A stretch of DNA of 63,583 nt, counting the filler, from Sphacelaria rigidula (taxonomy: Eukaryota): NCBI GenBank assembly GCA_964200075.2. It is 8 parts of 8 records of this genome, joined end to end, with 100 filler letters (N's around TTAATTAATTAA, not from the genome) between each part and the next. Parts side by side here need not be neighbours in the genome. Positions count along the whole stretch, not along the records: positions 39,804 to 47,663 come from CAXNAA020013196.1; 7 more parts are not named here. The stretch is one strand, 5' to 3'. The notes under the pieces are model-generated. The model was not told where the DNA came from, ran no database searches, and saw only the letters and a list, made by a program, of their open reading frames with translations. Made by a program: the position numbers and the translations under genes. The stretch's first letter is position 1. Each line of letters starts with the position of its first letter. Shown piece by piece: positions 1 to 62,565 of the stretch.

Positions 1-634
1 TGACCATTGACCACGCATCCCTTTCGAGACGGAGCAAGGGGGGGGGGGGGGGGTGATGGCCGGGCGGGGGCGAAATGCCTCCGTCGGTGGGGGGTTTCGG
101 TACGGAGAAGGGCACCAGTGAGGTGTAGAGAAGTGGGGTGGAGGGTCAAGGAGTCGATCGTCTCCTACACGTCGACGTTGGTCTCGGTTGACAGATGCTC
201 CCATTCTCAACACGTCCTCGCGAGGAACTTCGACGAGTGGTGCTACGATAGGGTGCACAACTTCAGTTTAGAGGTTCGAACAGTTATTACAGGAGCCATC
301 AATAAAAAATGAAATATGTGAGAGCACGCCACGATTAGCATTCAAACGGGCTAGGAATATCCCTGATGGGTTTGAGATCAGAGAATGTCCTGGCCCATCA
401 TGTTGTAGGGGAACATTAGGAGCCCCTCAATGAGGAAGATCTGGGCCCAGCAATGCAACCCCTACTGTAGCAGGACTCCGACGTGAGAACTGTCATACCA
501 TGATCCGGGCCCAACAGTGTTAGTTTACGGTTCCAGGCGTCTAAATACGACTGCGTTATGTAGCTGAAGATGGGCTAAGACGCACATGAACTATTATGAC
601 ACCCGGTATTTCACAAATGCTGTACTATACTCAC

Positions 635-6795: not shown

Positions 6796-7861
6796 ATGTT
6801 TGTGCCATTTTTAGTATGGTGATATTATAACAAAAAAGATGCTTACATGACTACGAACAAAATGACAGTAGGATTTGGGTCTGCACCTGACAACAGTACG
6901 GGTACAGACAGTACAGTACAGTACTCGTGGTCACTACACCTCGAAGTGATATTGCGGATATATGCCAGGTTTGTCGTTTCATAGCACGAGATCTAGAAAC
7001 AAAAATAGCAAACAAACGGTGATTCGCGACCACAAAATACGAAGTACACCATGACTTGCAATTCAACTGCATGCGTGCTTGTGGTTCCGGACGTAAATCA
7101 TCTTGTGCTCTTAACCCGCGTGCTGCCAGCCTTGGCTTGTTTGCATCTTCCTCTCCTCACGGAGAATCTGCTGCTGCATATTACAGATGGATGGTTTTTG
7201 GATCGCTCACCGCTTTGAATGGGATTTGAATGTCATCCGAGAGTGCCGAAAAAACAGTCCGAGACCCTATGCCTCTTTTCTCAACCCTGGAGTTGTTCAC
7301 GGGGGGGGTTACTAAATCCCATACATGAATAAAAAATTAGAAAGAAGATATAAATAATAAAAAACTTGAAAAATACTTGATGTAAAAAATTAAAATTCGT
7401 GTTCATGAAGCTTTAATTCTTTGCATACCTTCGGAGCCAAGTAAGGCCAAGTTATCTTTATGGGTTTCGGCAATTTATTGCACGTCACACTTCCACGACA
7501 AGAACAAGACCAGACAAATACCACAATGCTCTGCAATGCTTGCTCAATCAAGCTAAACCTATCTATCGGCACCGTCAATTTGCGTCCAATGTGAGTCGTA
7601 TCTTGTGGTGGCAGATGGGGCCAACAATCATGGGCGCTACCTCACCCAAGTCTCCCCAAAATGGCTATTTATTGAGTGTTTCTCAATGTGAAAAAAAACA
7701 AAAATCTTACGACCGCCAGAGGAGGGAGGGGGAAGGGGGTTGTGTACTCATGATCATGCATGTCATAGTCATAAGACCATCGGGGAGGGAGGGCGGTGTA
7801 CATAGAGTCTCAGAGTTTTGGGGGGGGCACTCCTGTGTCATCTAAGACTTTCAGCTCCTCA

Positions 7862-8760: not shown

Positions 8761-10127
8761 CCTCCCCCCCTCCCCTCCTCTCAAGAGTTAGCGTCGGTTG
8801 GTAACAACGCTGTAAAACACGTGACTCACAGCGTAAATTGGACACCCAGGTTAGCGTTTTGGTGTCGCTTGCGTTTTTGAGGGTAACCGTGATGGTCGTC
8901 GAGAGAGATCAAGTTATGGGAGTAGAGAAACTCAAGGCCGCGCCCAGGGAATGGTCGTACTACGTAGTGCTCAAATGGTGAGACACCGAAGAGGTAGTGT
9001 AACCCATGGCTGCCTCTGGAAGTGGCCAAATCAGGATCTGAAGCATTTGTTTTCGAAGCTGTCATCCATACGCAAGATCAATAGCACGCTTCTGGCCGCA
9101 CAATCTGAGCAGGACGGAGCTCACCCCTCATGCGACTCGCCGCACTCATCACGACGCTTCGCGCTCGATGATCGAGTGCGAGCCTGGTCCGGGGAAAACC
9201 TGTCGTGCTCCGTCCCGGCTTTGTAAGGATGCGAGGCCAATGGTCCTATGACTACAGCATGCAAAATCATGAGTGCACCGCAGGTGGATGCTTGGAGGGT
9301 TAGTTCACCTGCGACACTCGATCAATGAATCAACCAACCGTTCGATCAATGTATCACAAGGGCAAGTGGGACAAACTCATCATGAAATGTTTCCCGCCTG
9401 ACTGGCGCACAGCAGTACCGCATGCTAGTCTTCTCTGAGCATTGTACGATGTTTTGGCCGGTTAAACTATTTTTTTCTATAAAATATATATTTGGCGGGG
9501 TGGGGAGGGGGGGGGATACTCTTCATCCAACACACTAGGATAGCGGACGTGGTTAGACTTCTGAGTATGAAGTTGTTAATTTGATACTAAACGCATGCTT
9601 CTGGAGTCGTCGTGGGGATTTTCGCTGTTTGCAAGATGTTTTGCATGAGATGACCGCGAACCAACAAGGGTCGGACAGTTTTGGCGATTACAAAATAAGA
9701 TATTGGACGGCTGAGTTTTCAAGTTGCCTGAAGACCACGCATGAATAAAGGTCATCTCGATAAGATGTATACTAGAATACTCTTGTCTACACCATCATCC
9801 ATGCGTGCCGTCATGTTGCGAATGTCGATTTTGTGTGTGTATGTATGTGTTTGTATATGTGTGTTTTCTTGTCGGGCATGATTACTAGTAACTGCTTGTT
9901 TCGACGGCAAAGATGTGATGACACCAAGAAGAGCATTGCGCGGTCAAAATAATGATGAAGAAAGTACCGCTTTACCGCGCACGTGCATGTTCATCTATTG
10001 AATCGACACCATGTGAACTCCAGAAAAATATGTGGCTGTCATATTCAATCGGCATCTGAAGAGGTCAAACGGGGTTCATTGATTGATACGCCTTACCACG
10101 GACTCTCGCACTCAACACGACCATTAC

Positions 10128-13499: not shown

Positions 13500-15720
13500 C
13501 AGTGGGGGTATCAGAAACACCAGGAGGATTGCAGAAGCTGATAGAGAAGGTGGAAGGATGCACTAGGAAATGGATACTGACAGCGGACGTAAACAAATGC
13601 GGGATACCTGTATGTAACAAATATACAAATATAGGGACAAACCGGTAGAGTTTAAACGGAAGTGGTGAAAAGAGAAACTGCCGATCACAGACCAGTGTAC
13701 ACACCTCGTCGTAGAGATATCAATAAACTATTCTTTGGATGCACAAAAAAGCGAGGCAATAGAAAAGGGTAAATCACAGATAGGCGGGATGGACGTAATC
13801 CTAGGATCAATATATGTGTTCTAACGAATGTGATTGTACCAATGCTGGAATATGCAGGAGAAGTACGAGAGGGGAACGAGAAGTTAGTGCAGAAGCTGGA
13901 AACAGCACAGATGGTAGTAGCTAAGAAAATACTCGGATGCTCTGAAACGATGAGTGATACAGCATTGCGAGCAGGATTGGGAACGCACCCACTCAAAAGA
14001 AATAGAGTCATGAGAAGAATGAAATGGCGATTTGACGTGAGGAGCATGTCAAGAAAGATGGTATCACCCATAGTTGATGAGGCCGTATGGAAAGAAAGCG
14101 ATGGAAGGGCAGGCTGGAAGAAGGTAGGATAGCGTCGAGAAAGTATGGAAGGACATGGGAGGAAACCAAGGCGCGAGAATGCTCGTAGGTGAACATGGCG
14201 AGTAAAAGACAGAAGTAAGAAGCATGATAGAGTTGAGGAGAAAAGAGCACCAAGACGGAAAATGGACGAGGAAGAGCACCTAACGATATACGAGGGGTTG
14301 AGAAAAGGGATATGGTAGTTTTCATCTGATGTGGGAGGATTTTGTAATTTTTTCGTAGTTGACGATTTTCGATGTTTTTTGCCGCGTGCCATTGCCCATC
14401 CCAGCGAGCGGTTGATCCCAACGTTCGGGAGTCGGGAGACAGTAGGCATCCGCTCCACATTCCGAAACAAAAGTCGTCTCTGCGCTCAATATTGAAGGAC
14501 TTTCGAGCTCAATTGACAGGGGTTGTTAAAAAACGTTTCAGGTCGAAACCAATTGTTTCCAGCTCCAGCGCAATAAATGGGTTGGAAAAAGTTAATAGTA
14601 ACCCGTGAAACCATTCATGAGGGTGATCGGAAATGGATCACCCCCGCCTGTGCTATGCAGAGCTCGGTTGGGTAATTTCCGTCTCGGCTTAATTTTCTCA
14701 ATTTTCTCGTTTGCTTCTGTCCTTGGCGCTTAAAAATCTGAGCGTCGATAGTTATTGGGAAGAGAAGCAGGTCGTGCTCAGAAACACAACCCTCAATTGG
14801 GGCTGTCGGGATGATACGGAGTAAGTACCTTGTTGATAAGGGGGTGTTATCGATCGTCACTGGTCCAAAAAACACAGTTTTTGAGGCCTAGCGCATTAAA
14901 AAAGTTAGAAACTAGACAAGCAACCCTTTTCATTTGTTCATGAGAACGATTGATATTGCTTCAATCGAGCAAAATACACAAGGGTCAGAACCTGGGCTGG
15001 GTAGTCTCAGGACCCCCCAAAACCGGTCAGTCCGTAAGTCTTTCAACAATAAGCACAGATGTGACCTTATTTCGGAATGGTCAAAAAATGCCTAGTATCT
15101 CCCCATCCCCAAACTTTGGGACCAAACGTTCACTGGGATGAGCGGTGGCACGAGAAGATACTTTCGAATATCCCAGACTACAAAAAGCTACGAAAATTTC
15201 CTACTTCAAATGTAAACTACTGCAGAGATAAAAACATATCTGCATGGCCCAATGGTTTCCGCGGAATTATCAAAAGTGCGATTTCGGGCGGGGGACCTGG
15301 ACCTGCCACAAAGAAGAAAGAGGTATATCGGTAGTCGAGTGAAAAGAGGAAGTAGATGCACAGAATTTCCCCTGTGGCGAAGCACCTGAGCGTATGAGTT
15401 ATGTAGTGGCAGAATGTAAACTATACAAGGAGGAACGGGGCGTGATAGAGGGAGAAATGTGGGAAGTAGACGAAGGTGCCATGCAATCGTTTGAAATATT
15501 AGACAGGAGCGGAGAAACGATCGCTACGCTAGGAGATAGATGGTGACCACAGACGGCGAATCAGGATGTGGACAAGATATCTAAAGTATGTTTGTGTGAT
15601 GTATGGAAGAAACGTTATGAGCGCCAAAGCGCTGAAGATGTCTCGACTAGGAGTAGAAACGGTGCCCCGTCTCAAAAGGGGTGCGTGATCAATGACCAAA
15701 TGACTAAGGCAAGCAACATA
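13500..15720 (+). mobile_element. 5'-truncated decayed LINE (RT C-terminal part, thumb, CCHC-like zinc motif, 3' end)
   Basis: VGVSETPGGLQK, IVPMLEYAGEV...KKILGCS, LHGPM...RFRAGDLDLP, PCG...VVAECKLYKEER. Split by an insertion at 14314-15221. Confidence 0.85.
14314..15221. mobile_element. Non-autonomous TIR DNA element inside the LINE
   Basis: Imperfect TIRs of about 150 bp (GGTAGTTTTCATCTGATGTGGGA / TTCCTACTTCAAATGTAAACTACT). LINE homology resumes on both sides. Confidence 0.75.
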
Positions 15721-16371
15721 TACGTACCAAAAATTCGACTTAACGGTTGACGAGGGAAAGGGACTGCTGAACCCCTCTCGCGATAAAACAAGAAAGGCAA
15801 GCACCGCAGAAGGAAGGGGGGGNNNNNNNNNNNNNNNNNNNNNNNNNNNNNNNNNNNNNNNNNNNNTTAATTAATTAANNNNNNNNNNNNNNNNNNNNNN
15901 NNNNNNNNNNNNNNNNNNNNNNCGGCTTTGTAGGGATGCGAGGTCAATGGTCTGATGACTATGGCATGCATGATCATGAGTACACCCCCCCAAATCAAAC
16001 CTAAACCTGTCGCGAATAAAATGGCCATACAACACATGATAGTTAGTTTCAGACCACATGAAGCGCCTCACGTGGGCGATATTTTTCCGAAAAACGATCC
16101 CACGCGTGGGGAGTTCCCAGCTGCTCTGTGCACTCGGCTCTTTTTTGTCATATTGATTCGCATGTAGATTTTGCCTCGTCAAACCAGGCACGTCCTCGGG
16201 CAGGGCCTATCGCGGCAGCACTCCGTCGGAGCTATTTTCGTCTGCGTAAGATTGAAACCTTAGGCCCTAACCCACCCTTGTGGGGTACATCCGCTAGGGT
16301 TACAGTACGCATGCATTTGGTTTCGTACGAGAGCACCACACTAATAGGACGTCGTCGCCATCGAACTGCAG

Positions 16372-17965: not shown

Positions 17966-19996
17966 CACAGTTCGTACGAATCAGAGTTCATACGGGTTGA
18001 CTCCCTATGAATGTTGAGTGCGAGTCATGTACCAATGAGTCATCCAGTATGAATAACGGATGATTAAGTTGTATGTCCAAGGTCATACCGCACGAATCAC
18101 AGACTGGGAAATATGTGCACTCCAAGTAGTATCAGACGAATCAATAGTGCAAATTATGTATGAGTCACACTTCCTGTATGAGTCTTGGGTGGGAATCATG
18201 TACGCTCGATTCATCTCGAATGCACCGGAGGTAGGGAACATGTACGTACGGTTCATGCTGCATGAACGGAGATGGGGAAATATGTACGCTTGATTCACCT
18301 CGTATGGATGGTAGGCGCAGAACATGTACGTACGATTCATGCTGCATGGACGGAAATTGGGAAACATGTACGTGTGATTCACCTCGTATGAATGGAAGGT
18401 GCAGAACGCGTGCCTATGGTTCACGCTGCATTGATGAAAGGGGAGATACGTGTGCGCTTGATTATCCTCGTATGAATGAAAGGCGGAAAACATGTATACA
18501 TGATTCATGCTCACGAACGCAAGTTGGAAAACATGTGCATGAATCACGTGATTCATGCTGTATGAATCATAGGATAAACAGCTGGGAGAATCACTCTATA
18601 ATAGGCGCGCAGATGCGTGCTGTGCCATGCTGTACCGTACTGCCCGCGGACTGCGGAGTACGCTGCCGGAATTTCCCCGAAAAATCCCGCGAGCATGGGG
18701 GGACAACTCATGCTGGTGCTGTGTTCTCCGCAAGTTTTCGTGGTGTTGTATACAGTATGTTCGCAGAACACAACATGAAATTACAAAGACTGTCGATATA
18801 GCATAGCTCGGGGGCGGGTAAACTGGCTATAAACACCGCTCTGGACAGGCAGACACGTGCGCGGTTCTATCGTTGATGTGTTTCGTGAGAGTGCAAAAAT
18901 ATGAAATTGGGTTCATTGCGGATTTGGCTCTTGAGGGGTCCGCGACCTGTACGATCTTACTCACCTACTCCACCTGAAAACGGCCGCACTACCGAAGAAG
19001 CTCCACAGGTCCGTCGGACAGCTCATGAGCTACCCAAAATAATCGATCGAAGGGGACTGACTCTCAGATCCCCTATCCAAAAACACAAATTACGTGACAG
19101 CGGGTTCCGAGAAGTCAAAGCGCTACAACCTTTGCGCTACTCCGCGAGCTCGGTGTCCAGCGCTGCAGGGTGCAAACATGGAAAAAGCAGCCACATGAGC
19201 CTGCTATGTCGTTCTGTTCGACCTCTCTTTTTTTTTCCTTGGAGCGTGACACCACGGCTGTACCCCTGGGGAGTCAGTTAAAGTGCGACAATCAATCAAT
19301 CAATCAATTATGAGCCAACTCGTGATCCGGATCAGTACACTAATAACAAGTAATATTCAGGTAGCTCATGAGGTGTCCGGCCTGTGGAAGAGTCGCGCCC
19401 CATGAAATGACAGGTGGGGAGCAACATGTTCACGTGATTTATATCGAATGAGCAGAAGAAGGTGTAGAGCATGTACGCATGATTCGCGCTGCATAAAACG
19501 AAAAGTGGGAAACATATGCACTTGATTCATTTTGCATGAATGGAAAGCGGGGAGAACATGTAGGTATGATGTCATGTCGCATGAATGGAATTTGGGAATC
19601 ATGTACGACGCCTGGTTTACCTCGTGTGAATGGAAGCAAGGGAACATGTACGTCTGATTGATTCATGCTGCATGAGCGGAAATTTGGAATTATGTACGCT
19701 TGATTCACCTCATATGAATGGAAGGTGGGGAACGTGTGCCCATGAATCATGCTGAATGAATGGAAATTGGGAAACGTGTACCTGTCACTCACACCATACG
19801 AATGGAAGGTAGGAAACATGAACCTTTGACGGTGTACCGCACGAATCACGAACTGGGAATGTGTACGCTCAAAGTGGACTTGTACGAATCACGACCCCAA
19901 AACGTGTACACATCGCAACTTGTGTACGAATCGTATGATTGATTCGTCCACATGCTAGATATGAATCGAATCGCAATTTTATTCGTCCGAGCCGTG
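17966..19996. mobile_element. TIR element made of about 38/77-bp tandem repeats (GAACATGTACG..GATTCA..ATGAATGGAA), with a central insert
   Basis: Ends CACAGTTCGTACGAAT / ATTCGTCCGAGCCGTG; arrays at about 18090-18570 and 19400-19940. Confidence 0.7.
19200..19308 (+). mobile_element. (ATCA)n-tailed retroelement 3' end
   Basis: CACGGCTGTACCCCTGGGG..TCAGTTAAAGTGCGAC(AATC)n. Copies at 23090-23260, 42070-42277, 42480-42690 (-), and a degenerate one near 9285-9340. Confidence 0.8.
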
Positions 19997-21464: not shown

Positions 21465-21514
21465 GTGATTAGATCCAGGAACGAACGGGGTTGAAGGGGG
21501 TGGGAAGGGGGGGG

Positions 21515-21624
21515 CGTACTCATTTGTTGCAGTCGTTTGACCATTGACCACTCACCCCTTTCGGGATGGAGCACCGTTCCTACTCCTAGTAGAGACTCCT
21601 CCAATATTTGGGCGCTCATTACGT
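21515..21624 (-). mobile_element. Short 3' fragment of the C-ended LINE inside a G-tract
   Basis: Homologous to 15610-15720; G-runs on both sides. Confidence 0.8.
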
Positions 21625-22437
21625 GAGGTTGGGGGGGGGGAGACACCGAGAACAGAAATGACTACTTACTTGGAGGACACTTTTTCAATGCTTCATCTGA
21701 TACGGTACTTGGAGAACATTACGGGAGTCAAGAGAGAAGACGACAAAAAATGAAATGCCGAGCAGGTTTTATGTACATGTATGTTGCGGTGCTGTATGTT
21801 TGTATCACCCGGAGTCTTACAGTCTTCGATTGTTGGGTGCCTGACAGGGTTATTTGTACTATTACATAAGAAGAAGGGACGGGGGCGGGCGGTGGATGCA
21901 GATCCAGGCAATTACACCCTCAGCATCGTTTGCGTCACATTCAACGCGGCAGTACGGTGTTGTGTATCCACGGACGTACAACAGTTCCGCGTGAAGGATT
22001 GGCACGCGCAGAAAAAAAGAAAAACAAGAGGCTCCACGTACTGAACCGCATGATAAGCTCTACTATAACAAAACGCATGCAGCCGAAACACACGAAGATT
22101 AGGCCAAGCGAAACATCTCACCATACATACCGCTTGGTTGCGCTCTCTGAAGGCAAGAAATCCCGTACATGTCACCACCGCTATTCATTGCAATTATAAG
22201 AGACACTCAGTTTGTTGGAGCCTCTGTGGGGATGCGCAGCACACAGGGTAGGTATGCCAGCGGCACGATACTCTTGTGGTGGGTTGTCGGCATCGCCTTA
22301 TGTTTGGTCGTTGCGTTCGTTCGCGGAATCGAGAGCTCAACCTGGTTTCCAGCGGGCGCCCCAGTGTAACACTCTAACCTAGCTCACCTCACTCTGCATT
22401 TTTTGGAAACTGTACGGTGTACGCGGCTTCACCCCAG

Positions 22438-22559: not shown

Positions 22560-23576
22560 GTGAATGCATGCCCACGATGCCATTAAGGAAGCACGAAACC
22601 CATCTGCGGGGAAATAGGCGCCATGGTCGTCGTATTGTTGGCCCTTCCACTTTATTCTCCGTGTCTGCTCATGCCATTATTTTCTTGCGGCTTCATGTTA
22701 TTTTACATCGTTTTTTTTACGTCGGTAGCGTGTCCGTTACGGGCTAGGGCAAGGTGCACGCTGGCGCGTGGACAACTCCCGTAGGTACAATATCTACCTT
22801 CGATTCGAAGGCCTTGCGCGCCATCGCGCCGTCAACTCGCAGATTCAAATTTAAAGCCGAACGTTCAAGTGAAAGGTTCAACATGAATGTTGTGTCTCCA
22901 TCTTTTTGGAGATTGATTGATTGCACTCAATCTCCGTGAAGCCTCAACTACACTTTCAAGTCGAACCCTTGCATGCGAATTCGTAGGGTCAAGTTGAGCC
23001 CCTCTGGATCCAGCGGCAGCTGTTAAATAAGTTGAAGACAAACCTCGCATTCAACCTAAACCTTTTTGGAGTCGAGTATTTCGTTCATAGTAAACCCCTC
23101 TTTTTTTTTCTGTTCCTATTTTTTTCCCCTTCTGTTCCTTTTTAATTTCCCCCTTATAGCATGTTTCAGTTTCGTTCTTTTTGGGTATGTCTATCAGGAG
23201 ACCACGACTGTACCCCTGGGGGATCAGTTAAAGTGCGACAATCAATCAATCAATCAATCAGTAAAGGTCCGAAAGCACATATCCATTCACATTAGAGGTT
23301 CAGGTTAAAGATCCCGCAAGGGGTTTGTTTCACTCGTTCGAGTCGGTGGAGACCCCAGGTATGAACACACCTTCAAGTTTAGGCTTCAAGTCGGTACTTC
23401 AAAGTCGACCTTTCAACTCGTGTCTTAAATTTTCGATTCGAACCCTTCGACTTCAACTTGACACAATGACGAGCCAACTCCTGCCCCCCCCCCCCCCACT
23501 CCCGACCACCATTCTCTGCCCCGGATAATCATTCCGCCGTGCCTACCTCCGCGCGTGTGTGCACATATATGTACAG

Positions 23577-23699: not shown

Positions 23700-23883
23700 G
23701 TGCGCTTATTTGTCTGCGGGAGAGGGGCGGCGGCGGGGGGGGGGGAGGGGGGTACCCATGATCACGCATGCCATAGTCATCAGNNNNNNNNNNNNNNNNN
23801 NNNNNNNNNNNNNNNNNNNNNNNNNNNTTAATTAATTAANNNNNNNNNNNNNNNNNNNNNNNNNNNNNNNNNNNNNNNNNNNN

Positions 23884-30793: not shown

Positions 30794-31843
30794 GAGTGCC
30801 CCCCCCCCATCAGCCTGGTCGGGCGAGAACCCGGCGTGCTCCGTCTTGGCTTCGTAGGCGCGGACCCCCGGTGGGCTTGGCGTCGGTTGGCGACGCCGCC
30901 GTAAAACACGCCAATCACTGCGTAGGCTATGCAACAAGGTTACCGACTTAATGCACACTTCCGTTTTTTTTGCGGGAAGCATGATGGTAGTCGAGCTAGA
31001 ACATGTTGTGTGGCGTGGGAGAACCTCAACTCCGCACAGTGGGGACGATCGTACTGCGTAGTATTTGAATGATGAGACACTCATGAGACAGTGTAGAAGC
31101 CGTGGCTGTCTCTGGAAGTAACGATACCAGAAAATGAAGCAACTCATTAGAGGCTGTCATCCCAATGCAAGATAGTCAGTAGGCTTCGGGCCGAACAATC
31201 CTAGCACGATGCAGCTCACCCTTCATGCGACCCGCCGATCAAGCGCGAGCTTAGTCCGGCGAAAACCCGGCGTGCTCCGTCCCGGCTTTGTAGGGATGCT
31301 AAGTCAACGGCCATATTATGGCTATGGCATGCGGGGTCATGAGTACCCCCCCCCCCCCGCGCGCGCGCTCTCCTCCTTTTGTCTTGAAAAATATATTTTC
31401 GGGTGTAATAGGTGAGATCAAAAATGCATAGAACTCAGCTCGCGATGGCGAAACTGGAAACGCATCAACTCGCTAGAGGCGCCCTTCTCCCCCTATACCC
31501 AGTTACAATATTACACTAGATTACGATATCACGACGCCAGGCGCACATGTTTCGGTTGAATAGTGCGCCACGTACTGTCTTGTTACCCATGATCGTTGCC
31601 ATTTACACTCTAGACAATCGGTTAGCTGCAAACTTACTTTCAGGTATTCACTCAGAAGATGGATGGGAAAGAGTCATCCTACGATAGGGAGGGGGTATTT
31701 GGTTGCACGAAAAAAGAGGCTCATAAGTGTGTCAGACATCCTTNNNNNNNNNNNNNNNNNNNNNNNNNNNNNNNNNNNNNNNNNNNNTTAATTAATTAAN
31801 NNNNNNNNNNNNNNNNNNNNNNNNNNNNNNNNNNNNNNNNNNN

Positions 31844-32359
31844 CTGATAAGCCAGGGCGCCGTGGAGAGTACCGAAGTGTTCGAGGTTGAATTCTCCACG
31901 CGGCGGGGAATGTGGCGTTAATGGTGGAAGCGTGCGGTAGGTGCGTTTATTAAACCGCATATAGCTATCTCTGCCCAATAATATGGCGTGATGCATGGTG
32001 CTGTCGTGGACAACGTATGCCCAGACTGCCAGGCTGGCAGATCGAGTGGTGTTGTGAAAGAATTGCACACTGAGACGTACGGATTTATGGGTCGTCAGTG
32101 GCGCAGCCGAGTCACCGAAACCGCCCCACACTCTAGGCTTGGTGGTGGTTTCGCAAGCTGCAGTAGCAGCGCCAATGTGTTTCATGTGTTCCCATGTTGA
32201 TTCTCGAATAAACGTTTGCGGCCTGCCGCTGTCCAACAAGGATACGCATTTCGTAGGCGTGATAGCGTTTGGACCTGCATGGATCGCAACGCGAGTAGTA
32301 AAAGTGGCCGGATCGACGGACACTTTGCCGCTGACAAGCTCCGGACCGTGTTCCGGCAA
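31844..32359 (-). CDS. pol: Retropepsin-like aspartic protease (pol 5' part, truncated by the contig end)
   Basis: CVSLLDSGRPQTFI...HAILLGRDS. Confidence 0.85.
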
Positions 32360-32590
32360 GTAAACTGGTCAGGATCAGCGGGGCTGACAGCAAAAACGCA
32401 CGGCGGATGATCCGCCGGTGGGTTAGATGTCTCACCAGAGGAGGGGGTGGACGGCATATTATTTCCAGGTGTGGCACGGTCATGGGCGATTTCGTAAATT
32501 ATCGTCTTTGGTTGACAGGGATCACCGTCCAAGGGGGATCCAGGATGTGCGGGGCTGGAGTCGTCGATTGAAGAAGTAGTGCCATCAGAA

Positions 32591-34846
32591 TCATGTGATT
32601 TTGTTTCTTCCGGGATTTCTTGATAGAGCCGTCGAGCTCAAAGTCGTCGCATTTTGGAGAGATTGAGGTCGATGATTTCCGCTCGAAAGAGGTGTACGTA
32701 ATGATGTGCGCGCGTCCTTGGGGGCATGCTTACGGGGCTTTCTCTTTCGCCGTGACAAAGATCGTGGAACTTCCAAAACATTTGGGAATAATACCGCAAC
32801 TGCGTCCAGTTGCGTGGATGGGGTCAGCATCGGGGCATGACGGAGCGAAACTTGTGGGCTGCTTTCCGTAGGCAAGTTTGGCTGTTGGGGCATAGCCGAA
32901 GATATGTCGGGGCGGTTGTTAATAAAACCGGCCGAAGGTAGGTCCGTGCGTTTTAAAAAGCGCGGGGATGGAGACCGATCGAACTGATTGGGAATTTCAT
33001 GACCCGATGTGGTCAGGTTCAAATCAGCAACACTTGGGTCAGCTGAAAAAGGCTTGCTGCTACCTGTGCGTGCGGTCGCTGAAGGAAGCCTTGGCCTCAG
33101 GGGCTGGCGGTTGGTCTTCCCACACCTCAGACTTATACTCGGTACTGAAGGATCAAGTTCAGTGCCGGGTGTAGATCTGAGTCGCGGGGGGACACAACTG
33201 TTACGCGGTGTGTGGAGGGATGAGGACGGGGGTCGGTTTGAACGGCCGTCAGATGCACTCCTGCATAGTGCCGGGAGGGCCGGGCGGACAATCTTGGTCA
33301 CGGGCTCTGTGAGCTGTGTTGAAAATTGTGTAGAGGTTCGAGACGGGGGTTGATATGAACGGCCGTCAGTTACCCTCCTGGATAGTGCTGGGGCAGTCGA
33401 GTCAGCAATGTTTGACACGGACTCCTCGGGCTGTGTTGAAAAAGTCTTCGCTCGTGCTATCGACGGCGTAGAAGACCGAAGAACGCCGGCGTCGGCACGG
33501 CATGGATCTAAGCGATCCGAAGTGAAGGTACCAGGGTTTCTGGTGTTGGGATTAGAACTTTGTGTCGGTCCCGTCCGCTGGTGTCTATCAGCGGAACGTT
33601 TGTTGTCGCGAGAATTTTGATCATTCTGGCGAGGGTCTCCGTGATTGTTGTTGTGTCGGCGACCGCGGTCAGAGCTTTTGTTGCCACGCTGGTTCGAATT
33701 GCTGCGGTAATTTCGAGTTGGTGGACGATAATCGCGGCTGCGTTTTTGCCATCGGCGCCACGCGGGTTCATTGTTCTGCAATTCAGGGTTCATGAGATCA
33801 AAGGCATTGATGCATGGACTGTCACAGTCGCGCATGCTGTGGCCTTGAACACTACAGTTGATACAACTGTTGGCATGACTGCTGAAGGCATCGCGTCTAG
33901 CGGAAGACGAAAGAAGTGGGTTCCACAAGTGGGGGTCATCGGTTATGAATGCCGTGGTTGAGGTCAGATAAACATCATCCCAAGTTTCCTCGGAAAACGG
34001 CCAACCGTCAAAACTCGCGCTAAATGCATCTCTGGTACTCTGAACATGCATAGCTGAACCGGCGACTGAGTCGGGGGTCCATGAAGCGCGAGACGAGCTC
34101 GAATTCCTGCCGCGAGCCCCTTGGGCATGAGCGGAGGACACAACCGTAGGTTGTGAAGGCGCAGACGTTGAAGGTTTGCCACGTATGGCAGGTGTTAGAT
34201 TACTCTCCTGGTGTACAACAGCAGACCACATAGTATCAACGGAGGCGTAAGGCACCTCGCGATGCGCGAAGACACCCGGAAACAACGACGGCATCAGAGT
34301 CGGATACTGTTGAGCAACGCTATTGCGAACGTAAGTCCGACACATTGCATCGCTCGGTCCATTCTGGCGTGCGACACCCGTCGTACCCGAAACCAAAAGC
34401 ATAAATTCGCGGAGATAATCCGCGAAGGGAACATCAGATGCGACGACAAGAGAGCTCAGCCTCTGGATGACGCTGACTTGATCACTTTTATCAAAGTAAC
34501 CTATGAGACGCCTTTCCAAATCACAGAGTTGTTGCAGGCCTATCTTCCCTCGGGAACGGTCCAGATCCATCTCGGCGAGGAATCCGTCGAGCACCTGCGT
34601 CAAAGAAGCAGCGAGGTCGGGAGAGCGGCGGCTGATCGATCGGTGCATTGCTTTGTGCAAGGGAGCCTGCCAGCCCTCTACCCAGTCTAAGTCTTCGAAA
34701 CGTTGTGTGCCATTCACATCCGCCAAGTGAAGGATGTTACAAACAGTGCGGCGGACTGACGTGATAGGGGCAGAAGTAAACTGGTCCGTATCTTTGTTAC
34801 CCGCGGCAGGCATGGTTTTGATGTGCCAGAGTTTTTTCACATCCAT
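32591..34846 (-). CDS. gag: Gag (CCHC zinc knuckle) plus linker
   Basis: 751-aa ORF with Cx2Cx4Hx4C. Continues in frame upstream across one TAG (34847-35050). Confidence 0.8.
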   Translation of the reverse strand: MDVKKLWHIKTMPAAGNKDTDQFTSAPITSVRRTVCNILHLADVNGTQRFEDLDWVEGWQAPLHKAMHRSISRRSPDLAASLTQVLDGFLAEMDLDRSRGKIGLQQLCDLERRLIGYFDKSDQVSVIQRLSSLVVASDVPFADYLREFMLLVSGTTGVARQNGPSDAMCRTYVRNSVAQQYPTLMPSLFPGVFAHREVPYASVDTMWSAVVHQESNLTPAIRGKPSTSAPSQPTVVSSAHAQGARGRNSSSSRASWTPDSVAGSAMHVQSTRDAFSASFDGWPFSEETWDDVYLTSTTAFITDDPHLWNPLLSSSARRDAFSSHANSCINCSVQGHSMRDCDSPCINAFDLMNPELQNNEPAWRRWQKRSRDYRPPTRNYRSNSNQRGNKSSDRGRRHNNNHGDPRQNDQNSRDNKRSADRHQRTGPTQSSNPNTRNPGTFTSDRLDPCRADAGVLRSSTPSIARAKTFSTQPEESVSNIADSTAPALSRRVTDGRSYQPPSRTSTQFSTQLTEPVTKIVRPALPALCRSASDGRSNRPPSSSLHTPRNSCVPPRLRSTPGTELDPSVPSISLRCGKTNRQPLRPRLPSATARTGSSKPFSADPSVADLNLTTSGHEIPNQFDRSPSPRFLKRTDLPSAGFINNRPDISSAMPQQPNLPTESSPQVSLRHAPMLTPSTQLDAVAVLFPNVLEVPRSLSRRKRKPRKHAPKDARTSLRTPLSSGNHRPQSLQNATTLSSTALSRNPGRNKIT

Positions 34847-41831: not shown

Positions 41832-42160
41832 TTAGGGCGAGAGGAAAAGTCGCACACTTTCTTTTTTGCGTTTGGCGAATTGGACCATGCCCCACATTGT
41901 TTTCGCCGCGCGGCGAATAAATGTGCGCGGCGACTTTGGAGGAGGGTGCGGCAAGCCGTGTATGCCACACTGCAGGAGGTGCGTGTTCTCTCTACTCAGT
42001 CCAAGTGGTCGGAACCACAACAGCGCAACATCTATCTGAAGCGCTGGGCCGCACTACGATTTGACTCCGCATTTTTTCTGTTCCTTGTTCTCAGAGCGTG
42101 TTTCAGTTTCGTTTTTCTTGGGTACGTCTATCATAAGATCACGGCTGGACCGCTGGGGGG

Positions 42161-42227
42161 CGTACTCATTTGTTGCTTGCCTTAGTCGTTTGACCACTGA
42201 CCACGCATCCCTTTCGAGACGGAGCAA
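42161..42227 (-). mobile_element. 67-bp LINE 3' end with a 17-bp TSD ending in G6
   Basis: TSD GCTGGACCGCTGGGGGG (42144-42160) / GCTGGACCCCCGGGGGG (42228-42244). The empty site is visible in the host-repeat copies at 19255 and 23205. Confidence 0.85.
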
Positions 42228-42984
42228 GCTGGACCCCCGGGGGGTCAGTTAAAGTGCGACAATCAATCAATCAAATCACCAATAATCCTATAGTGCGATG
42301 ACATCGTATACGTCTAGCGGATCGCATGTTAAGAGTGATGTTGACCGCACTGTTGTCGGACCGCCGATGTACGGTAAATACAGACGTGGTTCCAAAAACA
42401 GCTGAAAATTTATTTCTCGGGGTCATCATGCAGGGGGTGTTATTCAGCGTATGAGTGCTGTGCAGTATTCACGCCCTCTTTTGATTGATTGCTTGATTGT
42501 CGCACTTTGTCTGACTCCTTCAGGGGTCATGATCCAGCCGTGGTCACATGATAGACGTACCCAAGGAAGAAAAAAATGAAACACTCGCTGGAGAAAAAGA
42601 AGAAACAGAAAAAATCGAACAGAACGACATAGTAGAGACCAAGACGTGAGAAAAAAAAATGAATGAAACGACAAGAGAGCTCTGGACAAAAGGGTATTAT
42701 TGGCTATTGGCAACAAGTGTATTGCGCACAGTATCGAACACTTTATATCGGCATACTAAACCATACTGGAATGTGTACCGAACATACCGGGATGGTCCGG
42801 GAGGGTATCGAGCCGTATTCCGAACATTCCAGTAGGGTCCGGACGGGTATTTGCCGAAAAAATATCTCTTTCGCCGATATAAATACTTTTTTTTAAATAC
42901 TTCTGGAATGACGCGAATTTCAGCCGGTATGTATGCCCTAGAGGACGCAACCTTGGAAGGTTGCGTCTGCTACAAACGCAACAT

Positions 42985-43439: not shown

Positions 43440-45025
43440 CACACGTCGGACAGATCAGCTCCCTATAGCTCGAGCTAGCTCTTTTTGAGCGTAGCTCCCT
43501 AGTGAGCTATGAGAGCTACATGAGCTACGCATGTTTTTCCTGGGGTGAGCTATGAGAGCTACATGAGCCACGCATGTTTGCCCTGGATGAGCTACCAACC
43601 CGTAGCTCATCAGCTCATATTCGTCCTGGGTGAGCTATGTGAGCTGTATGAGCTACGCACGTTTGCGATAGATGAGCTACCAACCCGTAGCTCATCAGCT
43701 CATATTCGTCCTCGGTGAGCCATGAGAGCTGCATGAGCTACGCATGTTTCCCCTGGGTGAGCTACCAACCCGTAGCTCGTCAGCTCATATTCGCCCTGGG
43801 TGAGCTATGAGAGCTGCATGAGCTACGTATGTTTGCCCCGGATGAGCTATGACAGATGCATGAGCTACGCATGTTTGCCCCGGATGAGCTATGACAGATG
43901 TATGAGCTACACATATTTGCTCTGAATGAGCTGACAGATGTATGAGCTACTATTGCTTATCCCTTTGACCGCGAGGGTAGGAGGTCTCTGAATCGGCATC
44001 ATTCACACCCGGAAAATGAAGTGGATTGTGCTGATTTATCAGATCGCCAGCCCTCGCGGTCAGAGAACTAACCCCTTGACGGCGAGTATAAGTCATCCGT
44101 TGAATCGGCTCCAATTTGACTTGAATAATGTATGCATGACCAGATGGACTCGTACCCTCGCGGCCAACCCATCAAAAGAAATGAATCGGCTGATTACTGT
44201 AGACACAGAATACTAGTGTTTTTTTAACCATCCGACCAAGCGAACGAGGATATGTGTTGGCTTCTCGTCTTCTTATCGCAAAGAGTGAGGCAAAACATCA
44301 CAACCTCATGATATGTGGCGCCATCCTTTCGAACAAGAATGTTACGAGGTACATCATAAGCGACACGGGGTTGGCCAGCAGCGAGCTAGGTATATGACGT
44401 GAGTCAGCCACGACCGTGTGTCCCTGGGGTGAGCTACCGGGCGTAACTCATCCGCTCATGTTTTCCCCGGGTGAGCTACAAGAGATGCGTGAGCTACACA
44501 TGTTTGCCTTGGGTGAGCTATCGAGCGTAGCTCATCCGCATATGTTTTCCCTGGGTGAGCTACCAACCCGTAGCTCATCAGCTCATATTCGTCCTGAGTG
44601 AGCTATGAAAGCTGTATGAGCTACGCACGTTTGCGATATGTGAGCTACCAACCCGTAGCTCATCAGCTCATATTCGTCCTGGGTGAGCTGTGGGAGCTGT
44701 ATGAGCTACGCACGTTTGCGATATGTAAGCTGCCAGCCCTCATCAGCCCAGATTCGTCCTCGGTGAGCTATGAGAGCTGCATGAGCCACGTATGTTTCCC
44801 CTGGGTGAGCTACCAACCCGTAGCTCGTCAGCTCATATTCGCCCTGGGTGATCTATGAGAGCTGCATGAGCTACGCATGTTTGTCCTGGGTGAGCTACCA
44901 ACTCGTAGCTCATCAGCGCACGTTCACCTTGTGTTGAGCTATCGGACGTAGCTCACATGTACATGTCTGACTACAAGTGAGCTACCGCCCGCAGATGAGC
45001 TAGCTCATGAGCTGTCCTACGTCTG
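43440..45025. mobile_element. TIR element built from GAGCTA/TAGCTC tandem repeats, with inserts in the middle
   Basis: Ends CACACGTCGGACAG / CTGTCCTACGTCTG; arrays 43460-43950 and 44420-45012; small TIR unit at 43963-44065. Confidence 0.75.
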
Positions 45026-47923: not shown

Positions 47924-50843
47924 GTACGATGACTCAAAGACTGAAAATAATGCCGATTCACGAAAAGGCCCCTATGTGCATCTCCATGTCCTGTCCCCGG
48001 AGATTTGGGTTGCATAGTAAGCCCCATATATTTGGGATCCTACAAAACGAGACCCAGGAACGAAAAGTGCAACCCCTATCGTAGCATTGGTCGTTCGCAA
48101 TAGCGTTGCTCAACAGTATCCGGCTCTGATACCGTCGTTGTTCTCGGTTGTCTTGGCGCATCGCGAGGTGCCTCACGCCTCTGTTGATGCTATGTGGTTT
48201 GCTTTTGTACACCAAGAGGGCAATCTAACGCCCGCCACACGTGTCCAACCTTCTATGCCTCTGCGTTCACAACCTACGGTTGTATCCTCCGCTCATGCTC
48301 AAGGGTCTCCCGGCAAGAATTCGAGTTTATCTCGCGCTTCATGGGCCCCCGACTCGATCGCCGATTCAGTTATGCATGTTCAAAGTAACAGAGATGCATT
48401 CCGTGCGAGTTTTGATGGTTGGCCGTTTTCGGAGGAAACTTGGGATGATGTTTAGTTGACTTCAACAACGGCATTCACTACAAATGATCCCCATTTGTGG
48501 AACCCACGTCTTTCGTCTCCTGCTACACGCAACGCCTTCAGCAGTCATGCCAACAGTTGCATCAACTGTAGTGTTCAAGGCCACAGTATGCGTGATTGCC
48601 TTTGATCTCATGAGCCCTGAATTGCAAGACAACGCACCCGCGTGGCGCCTGTGGCAAACACACATGCGCGACTATTGCGCACCAAATCGAAATTGGCGTG
48701 GTAGTTCGAATCCACGTGGCCACAAAAGCTCTCATCGCGGTCGCCGATAGAGCAAAAATAATGCAAGCCCTCGCCAGAACGATCATAATTCTCGCGACAA
48801 TAAACGATCCCTAGATAGACATCAGCGGACGGGGCCGACACACAACTCGAACCCCAATATCAGAAACCCTGGTACCTTCACCACGGATCGCGTGAACCCA
48901 TGACGTGCCGCCGCTGGCGTTCTACGATCTTCCGCGCCGCCGACAGCAGTAGCGAAGATTTTTTCAACACAGCCCGCAGAGCCCGCGATTAGGATTGTTC
49001 GCCCGGCTCTCCCAGCACTATGCAGGAGCTCAACTGACGGACCCCCGTCTTCATCCCTCCACACACCGCGTAACAGTTGTGTCACCCCGCGACTCAGACC
49101 TGCACCCGGCCCTGAACTTGGTCCTTCAGCGCCGAGTACAAGTCTGAGGTGTGGGAGGACCAACCAGCAGTCCCTGAAGCAAAGGCTTTCCTCAGCGACC
49201 GCACGCACAGGTAGTAGCAAGCCTTTTTCAGCTGACCCAATTGTTGCTGATTTCAACTTGACCACATCGGATCATGCAATTCCCAATCAGTTGGATCGAG
49301 ATTCTTCCCCGCGATTTTCAACACGCGCGGACCTACCTTCGGCCGGTTCTAATAACAACCGCCCCAACATACCTCCGGCTATGACTCCCCAGCCGAGCTT
49401 GCCTACGGAAAACATCCCACAAGTTTCGCTCCGTCATGCCCCGATGCTGACACATACACTGACTGGACGCAGTCGTAGTGTCATCTCGAAACGTTTTGGA
49501 AGTTCCCCGACCATTGTCATGGCGAAAGAGAAGGCCCCGTAAGCATGCCCCCAAGGACGCGCGCGCATCATCACGTAAACGTCTTTCGAGCGGAAATCCT
49601 CGACCTCCATCTCTCCAAAATGCGACGACTTAAGCTCGACGGCTCCACCAAGTATCACGGAAGGAACTAAATCAAATGTTTCTGACGTCACTACTTCTTC
49701 AATCAACGACTCCAACCCTGCACAATCTGGATCCCCCTCGGACGGCGATCCCTGTCAGCCACAAACGATCATTTACGAAATTGCTAATGGTCGCTCCGAC
49801 AGTGCCACACCTGGAAATAATATACCGTCCACACTCTTCTCTGGTGAGAAATCTGATCCACCGGCGGATCACCCGCCGTGCGTCTCTGCTGTCAACCCCG
49901 CTGATCCTGATCTATTTACCTCGCCGGAACACGGTCCGGATCTTGTCGGCGGTAAAGTGCCTGTGGATCCGGCCACTTTCACTACACGCATTGCGATTCA
50001 CTCTGGTCCAAACGCTACCACGCCTACGAAATGCGTATCCTTGTTGGACAGCGGCAGCCCGTAAACATTTATTTAAGAATCAACATGGAAACACATGAAA
50101 CAAACTGGTGCTGCTACTGCACCTTGCGAAGCCACCACCCAACCTCGAGTATGGGGCGGTTTCGGTGATTCTGCCGCACCCCTGACAACACAAAAATATG
50201 TACGTCTGAGTGTGCAATTATCTCACAACACCACTCGTTCTGCCAGCCTGGCAGTCTGGGCATACATTGTCCCCGACAGCACAATACACCACGCCATATT
50301 ATTGGGCAGAGATAGCTATATGCGGTTTCATAAACGAACGTACCGCACGCTTCCAGCACTATCGCCACATTCCACGCCTCGTGGAGGATCCAACTCTGAG
50401 CACTTTTTGGTACTCTCCACGGCGCCCTGGCTTACCAGAAGAATACTCAAGAAACCGGAGCTGCTTACCACCTACGATTCAACGGTAGCGTTGGTATTAC
50501 ACTCGACGATCCTCAACTTTTAGAGGTTGCACAAGTTCGCCGAAATGGCATGCCAGCACTTACGGGTCATTATCTTAGCGAAATGTTACCCCATATTGGC
50601 GCACCAGCCAACACAGAACACTTTGTCTCGGCGGGACAACAACTCTTCTTTGTTACGGATCATGCTAACTTGGAACCCGGCGATATTTTAGGAATCGCCG
50701 CTGCTCCCCTGATGCACATCCCACTCGAGAGGTGCATAACAGAGCCTGCTGCACCAAACGCCACATCTGCGGCGGAGTCAGCCCATTGTGTCGATGAACC
50801 TTATTTCGACCTCGCCTCTGCGACTCCACCCTAGGTCCACACC

Positions 50844-52656
50844 GTGGATCCTGTCCAACCGAATTCCGATCCTCCTGCTGAAATGCTTCAACGCTTATCG
50901 CCAGGTTCTCGGAATAGTTTCTTGCAAATGTGGCACCAACTACCGCCACACATGCGCGACATCAATTTTGACCTTCATACGCCCTACTGGGAACCGGCAG
51001 TCATCCGAAAACTCAGTGATGTCCTGCTACAGTACCAAGACCGATTTTCCCGATCCAAGACGGATCTTGGGCATTGCAAAACGCCTCCCTTTGAGGTTAC
51101 CCTCCAACCCGGCGTCACGCCGATCTCTTCTCGGCCATACCGGACAAACCCAATCCTTACCAAGAAGGTTAACGCCATCTTGGATGCATATTGTGGAGCG
51201 GGGTTAATACAATATTGCTCCTCTCCTTGGGCCTCGCCCCTTGTGGTCGTCCCCAAAAAGGATGGAAGCATACGCATAACCGTGAGTTCCCAACGGTTGA
51301 ACCGCGTCACTGTTGTCGGTAAACTTCAAATTCCCAGCATTTATGAAGTTTCGACTCCTTAGGCGAAGGAAAAATATTCAGCACCTTCGACCTCGCCTCT
51401 GGATTCTTTCAACATGCTATTCACCCCAACACAGTCCCACTGACGACCCTTTGTACCTCGTGCGGACTCTTCGAGTGGCTTCGAATGCCACAAGGTGCTG
51501 CCACTGCCCCGGGATGTTTTCAACGCTTAATGCAACGCGTCACCAAGGGCCTCGAGCACATCATCATGTACCTGGATGACGCCATCGCTTTCAATGCCTC
51601 ACCTATTGCACATATCCGCACTTTACGAAAATTGTTTTCTCGCCTACGGACTAATGCCGAGATACCCCCCCCACAAAAAGTGCACGGGAGACCGTCCGAC
51701 AAACCGGCTGTGATCCCACTATTGGGCTCATTTGCAGCAATGTCGCCCACATGAAAGGCTTGAAGCAGTCCGAAATCAGCTATAACGCCCAAATAAGTCG
51801 CGCCGTGGAACATGAAACCAGCTCTAACGGCATTTATGATCATCGCCTCCGTGCACATTTTTGGCCGGTTTCGGGGGAGGGCTATCTCGGCAGCAGTCTA
51901 CGCACACACGATTTTAAACTGTCTCCATCCAAAGCTCGCCTTGGTACGACTGACTTGGATTTCCTGGGGCATTCCATTTCGCCAGCAGGCCTGCATCCGG
52001 ATACACACAAAGTCAAGGCGATGACTGATTTACCGATGTCGACTAACATTTCTCAGCTTTGCTCATTGTTGGGCGGACTATCCTACTACCGCACTTTTTT
52101 GCCGAATCTATCAAAACGGATCCGCCCCCTCACTGAGCTACTCAAGAAAGGAGCCGTGTTTTCCTTCACAACCGATATGAAGAATATCACCCGCGAATTA
52201 CTTAAGATGCTCACCGAAAAGCCGGTACTCTGCTTTCCTGATTGGGAGGCAGTACAAGATGGCTCCCGCATTTTCCATCTCCACACTGACGCCAGCACAA
52301 ACGGATTTGGAGGAGTTTTGAATCAACCTCAGGTTGATGGCTCCGTCCGACGCATCCTTTACATCAGCCGCGCGACCCTGCCCAACGAGGCCAATTGGAG
52401 CCCGCTAGAACTGGAAGATGGATTAATCACTTGGGCCATCCCGCGCCTTCGACAATATCTGTTTCACGTGCTCTTTGAGATTTATACGGGTCATGGAGCA
52501 CTCGAACAACTCGCCAAGGTTGGCGATTACAACCCGCGTGTACAACGATGGTTGGAGTTTCTAACAGCATACCAGTATACCATTAAGCGCCGTCCAGGCA
52601 AAACCAACAGGAACGCTGATCTTCTTTCTCGCCTACTCCTGCCGCCTACGGCCGCA
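50844..52656 (+). pseudogene. pol: RT-RNase H region of pol (frameshifted, MITE-split)
   Basis: YLDD near 51568. Removing 51649-51898 restores FSRLRTHDFKLSPSKA. Confidence 0.9.
51649..51898. mobile_element. GAC...GTC MITE (250 bp)
   Basis: TIR GACTAATGCCGAGATA / TATCTCGGCAGCAGTC; perfect TACG TSD. Confidence 0.92.
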
Positions 52657-52906
52657 GACTAATGTCGAGATAGCCCCCCCACAAGAAGTGCACCGGAGAC
52701 CGTCCGACAAATCGGCTGCGACCCCACTATTGGGCTCGTTGGCCGCAATTTCGCCCACATGAGAGGCGTGTAGCAGTCAGGAATTAGCTATGACGCCCAA
52801 ATGAGTCGCGTCATCCAGCACGGAACCAGCTCTATCGGTATTTTATTATCATCGCCTCCGTGCACCTTTTTGGCCGGTTCGGGGGGGGGCTATCTCGGCA
52901 GCAGTC
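52657..52906. mobile_element. GAC...GTC MITE (250 bp)
   Basis: Same family; perfect CGCA TSD. Confidence 0.92.
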
Positions 52907-56332: not shown

Positions 56333-56789
56333 AGAGAGTTTCGGAAAACGATTTTTCGTCATTTCAGAGTGCAAATATCTCAGGACCAGAGTGCAGAATG
56401 AAAAAAAAACACTTCGTCGGAAAAAAGTTGAGGAGATACCACGTTTGACGGAGAGGAAAATCGACTGCTGCCGAGATAGCCCCCCTCCCGAACCGGCCAA
56501 AAAAGTGCACAGGGACGATGATCATAAATGCCATTAGAGCTGGTTTTGTGCTGCACGACGCGACTCATCTGGGCCTTACAGTTGATTTTGGACTGCTACA
56601 CGCCTCTCATGTGGGCGAAATTGCTGCAAACGAGCCCAGTAGTGGGATCGCAGCCGGTTCTCCGGACGGTCTCTGGTGCACTTTTTGTGGGGGGGCTATC
56701 TCGGCATTAGTCAATCATTTTTCGTTACCCTCTGATCCTGAGATATTCGCACTCTGAAATGACAAAAAAGCGTTTTCCGAAATTCTCTT
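56333..56789. mobile_element. TIR MITE hosting a GAC...GTC MITE (56463-56712, TSD AATC)
   Basis: About 65-bp outer TIRs; the inner copy is reversed and has a perfect TSD. Confidence 0.85.
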
Positions 56790-61780: not shown

Positions 61781-62192
61781 GTCGCCGTGATTTCAAAAGG
61801 CAACCCGGTAAGCACGTCGCTACGACCCCAGAGTGTAATCAGGGTAGTCGGTGTTGTGGGTCCCTAGGATCGCCACGGTCAGCACCTCGTGGAAATTTTC
61901 GGAGAGTATTCGGGGGGGAAAGGATGGATTGATCCCTTGAGACAACGCACTCATCCCAAGGAGGCGCGCAGGGGAGAGGGGTGCACTCATGATTTTGCAT
62001 GCAGTGGTCAGAAGACCATTGGGCTCGCATCTCCAAAAAGCCGGGATGGAGCACGCCGGGTTCTCGCCGGGCCAGGCTCGCAATTAATCACCAAGCGCGA
62101 AGCGCCGTGATATGTCCGGGAGAGCGCATAAAGGGTGGGAGGGTGTATTCATGATCTTGCATGCCATCATCATATGAGCATTGACCTTCAGT

Positions 62193-62565
62193 CGTACTCA
62201 TTTGTTGGTTGCATTACTCGTCTGACCATTGGCCACGCATCCCTTTCGAGACGGGGCACCGTTCCTACTCCTAATAGAGACGCCTCCAACATTTCGGTGC
62301 TCATTACGTTTCTTCCATACATTACACGAGAACCTCTTACATATCTTATCCCCGTCCTGTTTCGCCTTCTGTGGTCACCATCTATCTCGTAGCTGAGCTA
62401 TGGTTTCCTCCCTAATGTCTAATGCATCTAACGGTGTCATGCGACCTTCTTTCGCGTCCCTCATATCCCCCTCTTGCACGTACCGTTCCTCCTTCTATAG
62501 TTCACATCCTGTCACTATTTGAGTTCTGCTCTTCATTGCTTTTGCCACAAGGGCAAGTAGTCGCA
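62193..62565 (-). mobile_element. 3' fragment of the LINE family at 13500-15720
   Basis: Encodes CPCGKSNEEQNSNSDRM-like and DRWWPQKAKQDGDKI segments; ends ...AACAAATGAGTAC. Confidence 0.8.

Follow-up and report, generated by a model that had tools for sequence, protein, structure and literature searches.

A LINE family of Sphacelaria rigidula with an oligo(C) 3' end, found in G-runs together with a non-autonomous partner

How does a LINE without a poly(A) tail come to lie with its 3' end directly against a run of G's? The question is raised by a very short insertion in the window, the whole stretch of 63,583 nucleotides analysed here, which is made up of contigs of the 244-Mb Sphacelaria rigidula assembly with N spacers between them (50% GC). 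A preliminary description had seen in it a 67-bp LINE copy with a 17-bp target site duplication (TSD) ending in GGGGGG, and empty sites in other copies of the host repeat near 19255 and 23205. The features at this site and at its empty counterparts are as follows.

42161..42226, minus strand: 5'-truncated copy of the LINE (family 1), 66 nt, with a tblastn match to residues 1342-1360 of the related protein P0003
42144..42160, plus strand: TSD on the 3' side, with G6 as its end (C6 when read on the element strand)
42228..42244, plus strand: TSD at the 5' junction, ending in G6, 15/17 identical
19248..19308, plus strand: empty site (G4) within a different host-repeat copy
23158..23258, plus strand: empty site (G5) within a different host-repeat copy

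The insertion was confirmed as 66 nt of element plus a single extra base at 42227, which lies between the element and the 5'-junction TSD, and the two 17-bp TSDs (42144-42160 and 42228-42244) differ by 2 mismatches. The 66 nt contain the last 20 codons of the ORF, the stop codon (42166-42168) and a 5-nt 3' UTR, and correspond to a conserved RNA module. Both empty sites were found where they had been placed, with G-runs of at least 4, and three further empty host sites, two in locus L012 and one in L142, have G-runs of at least 4 at the same place. The host repeat (42071-42290, 42481-42615, 19248-19308 and 23158-23258) ends in (CAAT)n, and two of its copies are inverted around 42290-42480.

The identification as a LINE was borne out, since an RT and an N-terminal APE endonuclease lie in one ORF with a fixed 3' end. 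An RVT_1 domain was detected in the S. rigidula copy L064, and a 306-aa open frame of one copy holds the RT domain. A search for longer relatives of this 306-aa query returned 72 proteins, of which the best full-length ones, P0003 (1360 aa) and P0004 (1328 aa), contain Exo_endo_phos (APE-type) and RVT_1 in a single ORF, are both 66-70% identical to the query and end in the same C-terminal peptide as the S. rigidula copies. Nine long copies from this genome align along most or all of P0003 (spanning residues 1 to 1360), all nine broken by stops, shifts or insertions; the N-terminal 107 residues have at least 152 genome matches. The long copies are in frame to the end, where NGAPSRKGC(V/L)VNGQTxKASNK is followed by the stop, 5 nt and a C-run. 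The ORF of about 4 kb is preceded by at least 1.5 kb of upstream sequence. In three loci (L312, L314 and L321) a tandem array with a ~45-nt unit lies ~1.0-1.5 kb upstream of the ORF start and runs past the fetched flank.

A fixed 3' end, variable 5' truncation and TSDs of variable length were all found, as in an APE-type LINE. The nearest named RT relatives are Ectocarpus proteins, and the 90% cluster of P0004 contains Ectocarpus proteins as well. In an RT tree of 28 rows, none of them a labelled clade reference, the S. rigidula copy falls in a 97/99 clade with P0004, P0009, P0035 and a second Ectocarpus lineage; the other LINE fragment of the window, RTE-like by reading, is 27% identical to it and sits on a long branch far away. 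We conclude, with a probability of about 0.75 for the whole explanation including the G-run targeting, that the element is an RTE-X-type LINE with one EN-RT ORF, a relative of Ectocarpus RTEX-1_Ec32, accompanied by a non-autonomous partner family; as the Ectocarpus proteins in the tree are unnamed, the RTEX label is reached by elimination among the three LINE clades of PMC12477816.

The exact terminal 19-mer of the element has 3788 matches genome-wide, and 2914 of these (77%) are followed by CCCC. It had been claimed that the LINE has no tail of poly(A) or microsatellite type and that its 3' end is followed by Cn. The lack of poly(A) and the Cn stand; the element does, however, have a tail, which is oligo(C) and often exceeds the target run. 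For the junction counts, copies were selected by an internal 21-mer (90 loci, which take in most of the first 100 among 3586 listed places and lie without exception on long contigs), which gave 94 distinct copies, and the 30 loci of the first DNA search were kept out because that query contained the G-run. After two copies without 8 nt of flank had been dropped, G made up six or more of the 8 nt at the 3' junction in 76 of 92, compared with 1155 of 125688 positions (0.9%) in the window, and none was A-tailed. Membership of the L1 clade, with its poly(A) tail and TTTT/AA target, was rejected: AAA follows just 1 of 3788 3' ends, and 0/92 copies have A-tails.

At the far (5') junction, GGGG lay within 25 nt in 63 of 80 copies (79%), compared with 3/80 for a C-run control and 159/2400 (7%) in the local background. 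Because this junction cannot contain the tail and yet has GGGG, the G-run belongs to the duplicated target. This shows that the G-run pre-exists at the target and that the LINE inserts into pre-existing G-runs. The proposed targeting of oligo-G tracts is thus upheld at the DNA level, where G-runs are enriched genome-wide and poly(A) ends are all but missing.

A strict TSD of 8-22 bp was called in 22 of 71 copies and in 7 of 556 mismatched pairs; this caller was used instead of a loose one, which gave 34/71 with ~14% false positives. The other 49 copies have no strict TSD, many of their flanks being too G-rich for a call. Among the 22 resolved copies, nothing was added past the target run in nine and 3-17 extra G-rich bases were added in 11, some with doubtful anchors, while the TSD ended in 0-2 G in seven, several again with doubtful anchors. 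The tail is longer than the target run in, for example, L057, L100, L101, L126 and L144, and in the first three of these the target run is as short as G3. No fixed motif was seen by eye in the non-G part of the TSDs. Empty and filled alleles were found in four host repeats, and one G4-6 site was filled independently by copies of ~66, ~114 and ~154 nt; newer copies also lie inside the C-tails of older ones (L303, L327 and L329). Outside this genome, the same 3' end with C8-C10 occurs in three metagenome contigs (L340, L341 and L348), one of them from the second lineage. Many contigs break at family copies or their G-runs. The N-runs with a 12-bp TTAATTAATTAA linker at 7862-7961 and at six like places are artificial contig joins.

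Four further family-1 copies were mapped in the window.

1..53, minus strand: copy at 1-36, truncated by the start of the contig; its 5' end lies at nt 66, with G16 beyond that junction
21507..21640, minus strand: copy at 21515-21624, ~110 nt, its junctions marked by G8 and G10
62193..62555, minus strand: older copy, ~360 nt, 3' junction without a G-run, adjoining a family-2 fragment
13502..15727, plus strand: decayed long copy, RT thumb region to C-terminus, tail decayed

The G/C-runs that had been noted beside the copies at 1-53 and 21500-21640 are present. Two window copies are without a G/C run, namely the one at 62193, which abuts the family-2 fragment, and the decayed one ending at 15727, which carries an insertion at ~14313-15226.

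Further ends had been described as related, and they were assigned differently here: those at 7743, 8750, 15984, 23751, 31347, 61982 and 62144 are ends of a separate non-autonomous family, here called family 2, with the following copies in the window.

30799..31358, plus strand: near-complete copy, element at 30813-31347 between C10 and C13
8253..8780, plus strand: copy between C-runs, split by the palindromic repeat 8501-8735
8787..9277, plus strand: copy of ~490 nt
15923..15991, plus strand: 3' end with C7, truncated at an assembly gap
7736..7790, minus strand: short copy with G-rich flanks
23735..23783, minus strand: 3' end with G11 and G6, truncated at an assembly gap
61970..62187, minus strand: two tandem fragments, 3' junctions G-rich

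Family 2 is ~560 bp long and looks non-coding, and a 22-mer from it has 1930 exact matches in the genome. It has the 3' module of the LINE (its last ~60 nt) in common with family 1, and its junctions are likewise G/C-rich, at 25 of 30 3' ends and 20 of 24 5' ends. Its 5' end duplicates its own nt 50-97 (L202 and L208; in the window, 30813-30858 against 31254-31295). A minority of short family-2 copies end at ~nt 95-99, where the sequence is the same as the full-length 5' end. Neither L202 nor L208 had an Rfam match.

The insertion mode of the LINE had also been put forward as a possible explanation for the abundant G/C homopolymers. Within 30 nt of a family-1 or family-2 end, a zone that covers ~4% of the window, lie 11 of 31 G/C runs of at least 7 and 5 of 10 runs of at least 10; the rest are elsewhere. 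The families are therefore a real but partial source of these homopolymers. A 250-bp repeat (51649-51898, 52657-52906 and 56463-56712) has G7-G9 beside a common motif, away from the ends of either C-tailed family. The repeat that interrupts the family-2 copy at 8501-8735 is palindromic and MITE-like, with relatives at 55082-55291 and 965-1207, and in the middle of this copy lie some six telomere-type CCCTAA units. Another LINE is represented on the minus strand at 25788-29252 by fragments with RT and endonuclease-like frames, split by a 440-bp palindromic repeat that is present twice and is also inserted in the LINE copy L334. Two related, decayed copies with LTR-retrotransposon-like frames lie in opposite orientation at 31844-34846 and 48092-55337; by eye, the frames are protease-, RT/RNase H- and integrase-like. 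At 43502-44955 there are two arrays of an ~85-bp GAGCTA-rich tandem repeat, unrelated to the 5' array of the LINE.

Two copies had been reported, as 1-37 and 42161-42227, to share a stop point. As mapped here (1-36 and 42161-42226), both indeed end at GGAGCA, and this point is the genome-wide mode. Clean 5' ends were available for 81 copies, the other 13 of the 94 having been left out for contig ends or N: 13 ended before nt 60, 48 at nt 60-70 (mode 66) and 20 beyond. The end rate was 0.20 per nt at nt 66-70 compared with 0.004-0.006 at nt 27-59 and nt 131-700. Genome-wide, 3587 copies reach nt 66 and 1343 of these go 3 nt further; since point mutation would, by our estimate, remove perhaps a sixth, roughly half of the copies stop at nt 66. 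Contigs from three of four other organisms (X5, X9 and X14) have loose ends at nt 64-66 followed by what we guess to be G-runs; in the fourth (X2), no loose end at nt 66 was present among the matches listed. For Ectocarpus, the first 25 of the 44 RTEX-1 places in table S10/S11, which holds expressed copies only, have a shortest length of 132 bp. No description of a sharp 5' stop in such a LINE, or of poly(G) priming, was found in the literature searched, with most subscription papers and Repbase Reports outside its coverage.

The last 66 nt fit a three-helix fold, a closing stem plus two hairpins, in which the closing stem begins at nt 66. Across five aligned sequences, three algal-type and two at ~40% protein identity (seven sequences for the inner hairpin), 95.6% of 90 cells were paired and 5 of 20 pairs had a two-sided change, compared with at most 47% pairing in slid controls; this covariation comes from 5-7 sequences of about three lineages, from which the structure itself was drawn. 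An alternative terminal pairing of nt 38-46 with the last 9 nt, at 82.5% paired and zero two-sided changes, was rejected. Single-sequence folds did not outdo shuffled sequences (z -1.3 to +0.3), and in the long RNA the minimum-energy fold favours other pairings than the module. A search of 75 more distant metagenome loci with the module model yielded no credible match (one at E 0.88). In a relative at 40% identity (L344) the module is kept and the end consists of TTTA-type repeats, so a change of tail need not affect the module. The stop point coincides with the 5' edge of this predicted, covarying module, which overlaps the ORF end. Six more distant proteins (P0017, P0019, P0022, P0036, P0037 and P0043; ~53-56% RT identity) end in GCVV(N/Y)G-like peptides, a hint that such an overlap may be common to a wider lineage.

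We propose that the LINE protein would bind this 66-nt three-helix module overlapping the last 20 codons and that the endonuclease would nick the G strand within or just after a G-run. The 3'-OH of the G-run could then pair with the C-run encoded right behind the module (internal priming), and slippage on the C-run may lengthen the tail. Because priming would occur on the encoded C-run, poly(A) would not be copied, and because two G/C runs would be left per insertion, new targets would be created. From the junction geometry, with which it is consistent, we infer G:C-annealed priming as a counterpart of that of L1. Either the endonuclease or the annealing may be the source of the target bias.

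For the stop at nt 66, a feature found only in family 1 may be relevant: nt 74-79 resembles the 3' strand of the closing stem and can pair with nt 61-66, with a probability of 0.28 in the long fold. In L348, of the RTEX-2 type, this look-alike is absent. Copying would open the closing stem of the module, upon which nt 61-66 could re-pair with the look-alike, and the resulting hairpin would stall the RT or peel off the cDNA end, which would then join the target. RT arrest at such a refolding hairpin is the account of the stop that we prefer within the best explanation, at slightly less than an even chance.

The endonuclease might have no preference at all: nicks would be random and only those adjacent to G-runs would anneal and prime, or copies would merely survive in G-runs. 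Target runs down to G3 and the failure to see a motif by eye outside the G's would fit such a reading, but passive survival alone can yield neither 79% against 7% nor repeated independent insertions at one run. Selection by annealing is a possibility whose sole difference from the best explanation is the step that supplies the bias; taken as a whole, we regard this alternative as rather unlikely.

A second alternative bears on the stop. The RNA might be cut at the 5' edge of the module by a host nuclease, small-RNA slicing or an undescribed ribozyme, and the freed module with its C-run copied in trans as a minimal retroposon. That the mode falls precisely on the base at which the closing stem begins would suit a cut, as would 5' ends that are ragged toward shorter lengths, extra bases at 8 of 23 stop junctions, and the loose ends in the X5, X9 and X14 contigs. 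Microhomology of at least 1 nt at 14 of these 23 junctions, which falls between the patterns for full-length and truncated L1 (PMC2912911), does not separate arrest from cut, and neither do the extra bases. Against a cut, 9 of 42 copies at loci selected for passing nt 69 end at 69-70, which points to a zone, not one sharp site; Rfam returned no ribozyme or RNA family for five loci at E up to 10 (two chance-level, non-ribozyme hits); and HDV-like and hammerhead layouts, threaded by eye, did not fit. Family 2 also speaks against a cut. None of its 24 clean 5' ends lies at nt 55-80 and 16 lie at nt 28-54 (6 of 30 copies were dropped, and the value for L199, 97, is limited by the reference). As family 2 has the module, this argues against a stop due to the module alone; as it lacks the nt 74-79 look-alike, which only family 1 has, arrest is favoured over an RNA cut, which we hold to be unlikely. 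The fullest form of that alternative is, in our estimate, a little less likely still: an undescribed self-cleaving or host activity would cut at the 5' edge of an in-ORF three-way-junction module, and G:C-primed TPRT of the freed module and C-run would make it a self-sufficient minimal retroposon that outnumbers its parent and seeds G/C targets across brown-algal genomes.

The C tail could instead be added after transcription (polycytidylation) and not be read from the C-run of the donor. The tails that exceed the target run by 3-17 nt, in 11 of 22 TSD-resolved copies with some anchors doubtful, and a 3' UTR of just 5 nt would be compatible with this. However, a C-run is already present behind the module in every genomic donor, many tails are interspersed with single other bases, as expected of copied flanks, and slippage on tandem tails is described for L2 (PMC3747384); we consider polycytidylation improbable. 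That the 66-nt copies are a separate mini-SINE family with its own master gene is very improbable: they are the commonest class (48/81) and seem a little less diverged than the long ones (in an ungapped comparison of differently chosen sets), but 49 long and 60 short copies agree in their majority base at each of the 62 positions compared and have minor variants in common, and no head or 5' flank is common to the 66-nt copies.

The C tail and the C-rich TSD are not new, being on record as Ectocarpus annotation (PMC12477816). The TE library gives RTEX-1_Ec32 a 'single EN-RT ORF; (C)n 3'' and a 'C-rich' TSD (Dinatale et al. 2025, PMC12477816), and RTEX-2_Ec32 '(C)n termini/TSD'; the best blastp matches in its supplement are RTEX-4_NV and RTEX-1_BF. 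The S. rigidula LINE is like both Ectocarpus elements in its single EN-RT ORF, (C)n 3' end and C-rich TSD, a match at the level of annotation, and like the Ectocarpus proteins in its RT grouping and C-terminal peptide; their length is 5.5-5.9 kb, compared here with 4 kb of ORF and a minimum of 1.5 kb before it. As far as the available annotation of RTEX-1/2_Ec32 goes, it contains no target counts, priming model, RNA fold or nt 66 stop, and a motif search of the supplement outside its FASTA libraries gave no match. What is added to this record is the quantified targeting, a module that lies within the end of the ORF, and the nt 66 stop. Family 2, compared by description, is like RTEX-N1_Ec32, given in the same source as non-autonomous and ~600 bp with a '60 bp 3' end' in common, in its length (~560 bp), its last ~60 nt, its C-rich junctions and its tandem copies; it is unlike it in that its head repeats its own nt 50-97, whereas the Ectocarpus head is called unknown.

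Among other systems, RTE, L2 and CR1 LINE/SINE pairs have common 3' stem-loops and non-poly(A) tandem tails (PMC3747384), and the tails listed for green-algal RTEX elements in Table 3 of that paper are (CA)n, (CAA)n, (CCAT)n and others. The families described here are like the stringent LINE/SINE pairs, as far as these are set out there, in consisting of a LINE and a partner with a common 3' end, a stem-loop and a non-poly(A) repeat tail, and unlike them in the mononucleotide C tail that matches the target and in the module within coding sequence. Like the microsatellite-targeting APE LINEs Waldo, Mino, Kibi, Koshi and Dong, of which none targets poly(G) in the list of PMC3812793, family 1 inserts in simple repeats; unlike these members of other clades, it has a loose preference, for which G3 can suffice. 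Bov-B copies are rarely flanked by tail-like targets (PMC13295347), unlike family 1.

One site near which about half of the copies end, at the edge of an RNA module, is relevant to LINE truncation in general; arrest and cleavage predict different outcomes for it, and the 66-nt segment is a candidate minimal template for the family-1 RT. The target raises the question whether LINE target choice is set by endonuclease preference or by pairing of primer and RNA. In mammalian L1, a T-run primes on poly(A) (PMC3812793 and PMC13295347). The S. rigidula LINE is like L1, as described there, in APE-type TPRT, a homopolymer at the nick that matches the RNA tail, and duplications of 8-22 bp; it is unlike L1 in using G:C and not A:T, in a tail encoded 5 nt after the stop, in a specific 3' RNA module and in a single ORF. 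Its RT is only distantly similar to L1 ORF2p (E about 1e-20), as it is to that of R2. What was a library remark on a (C)n end and a C-rich TSD thus becomes a measured natural G:C counterpart of the T:A priming rule of L1.
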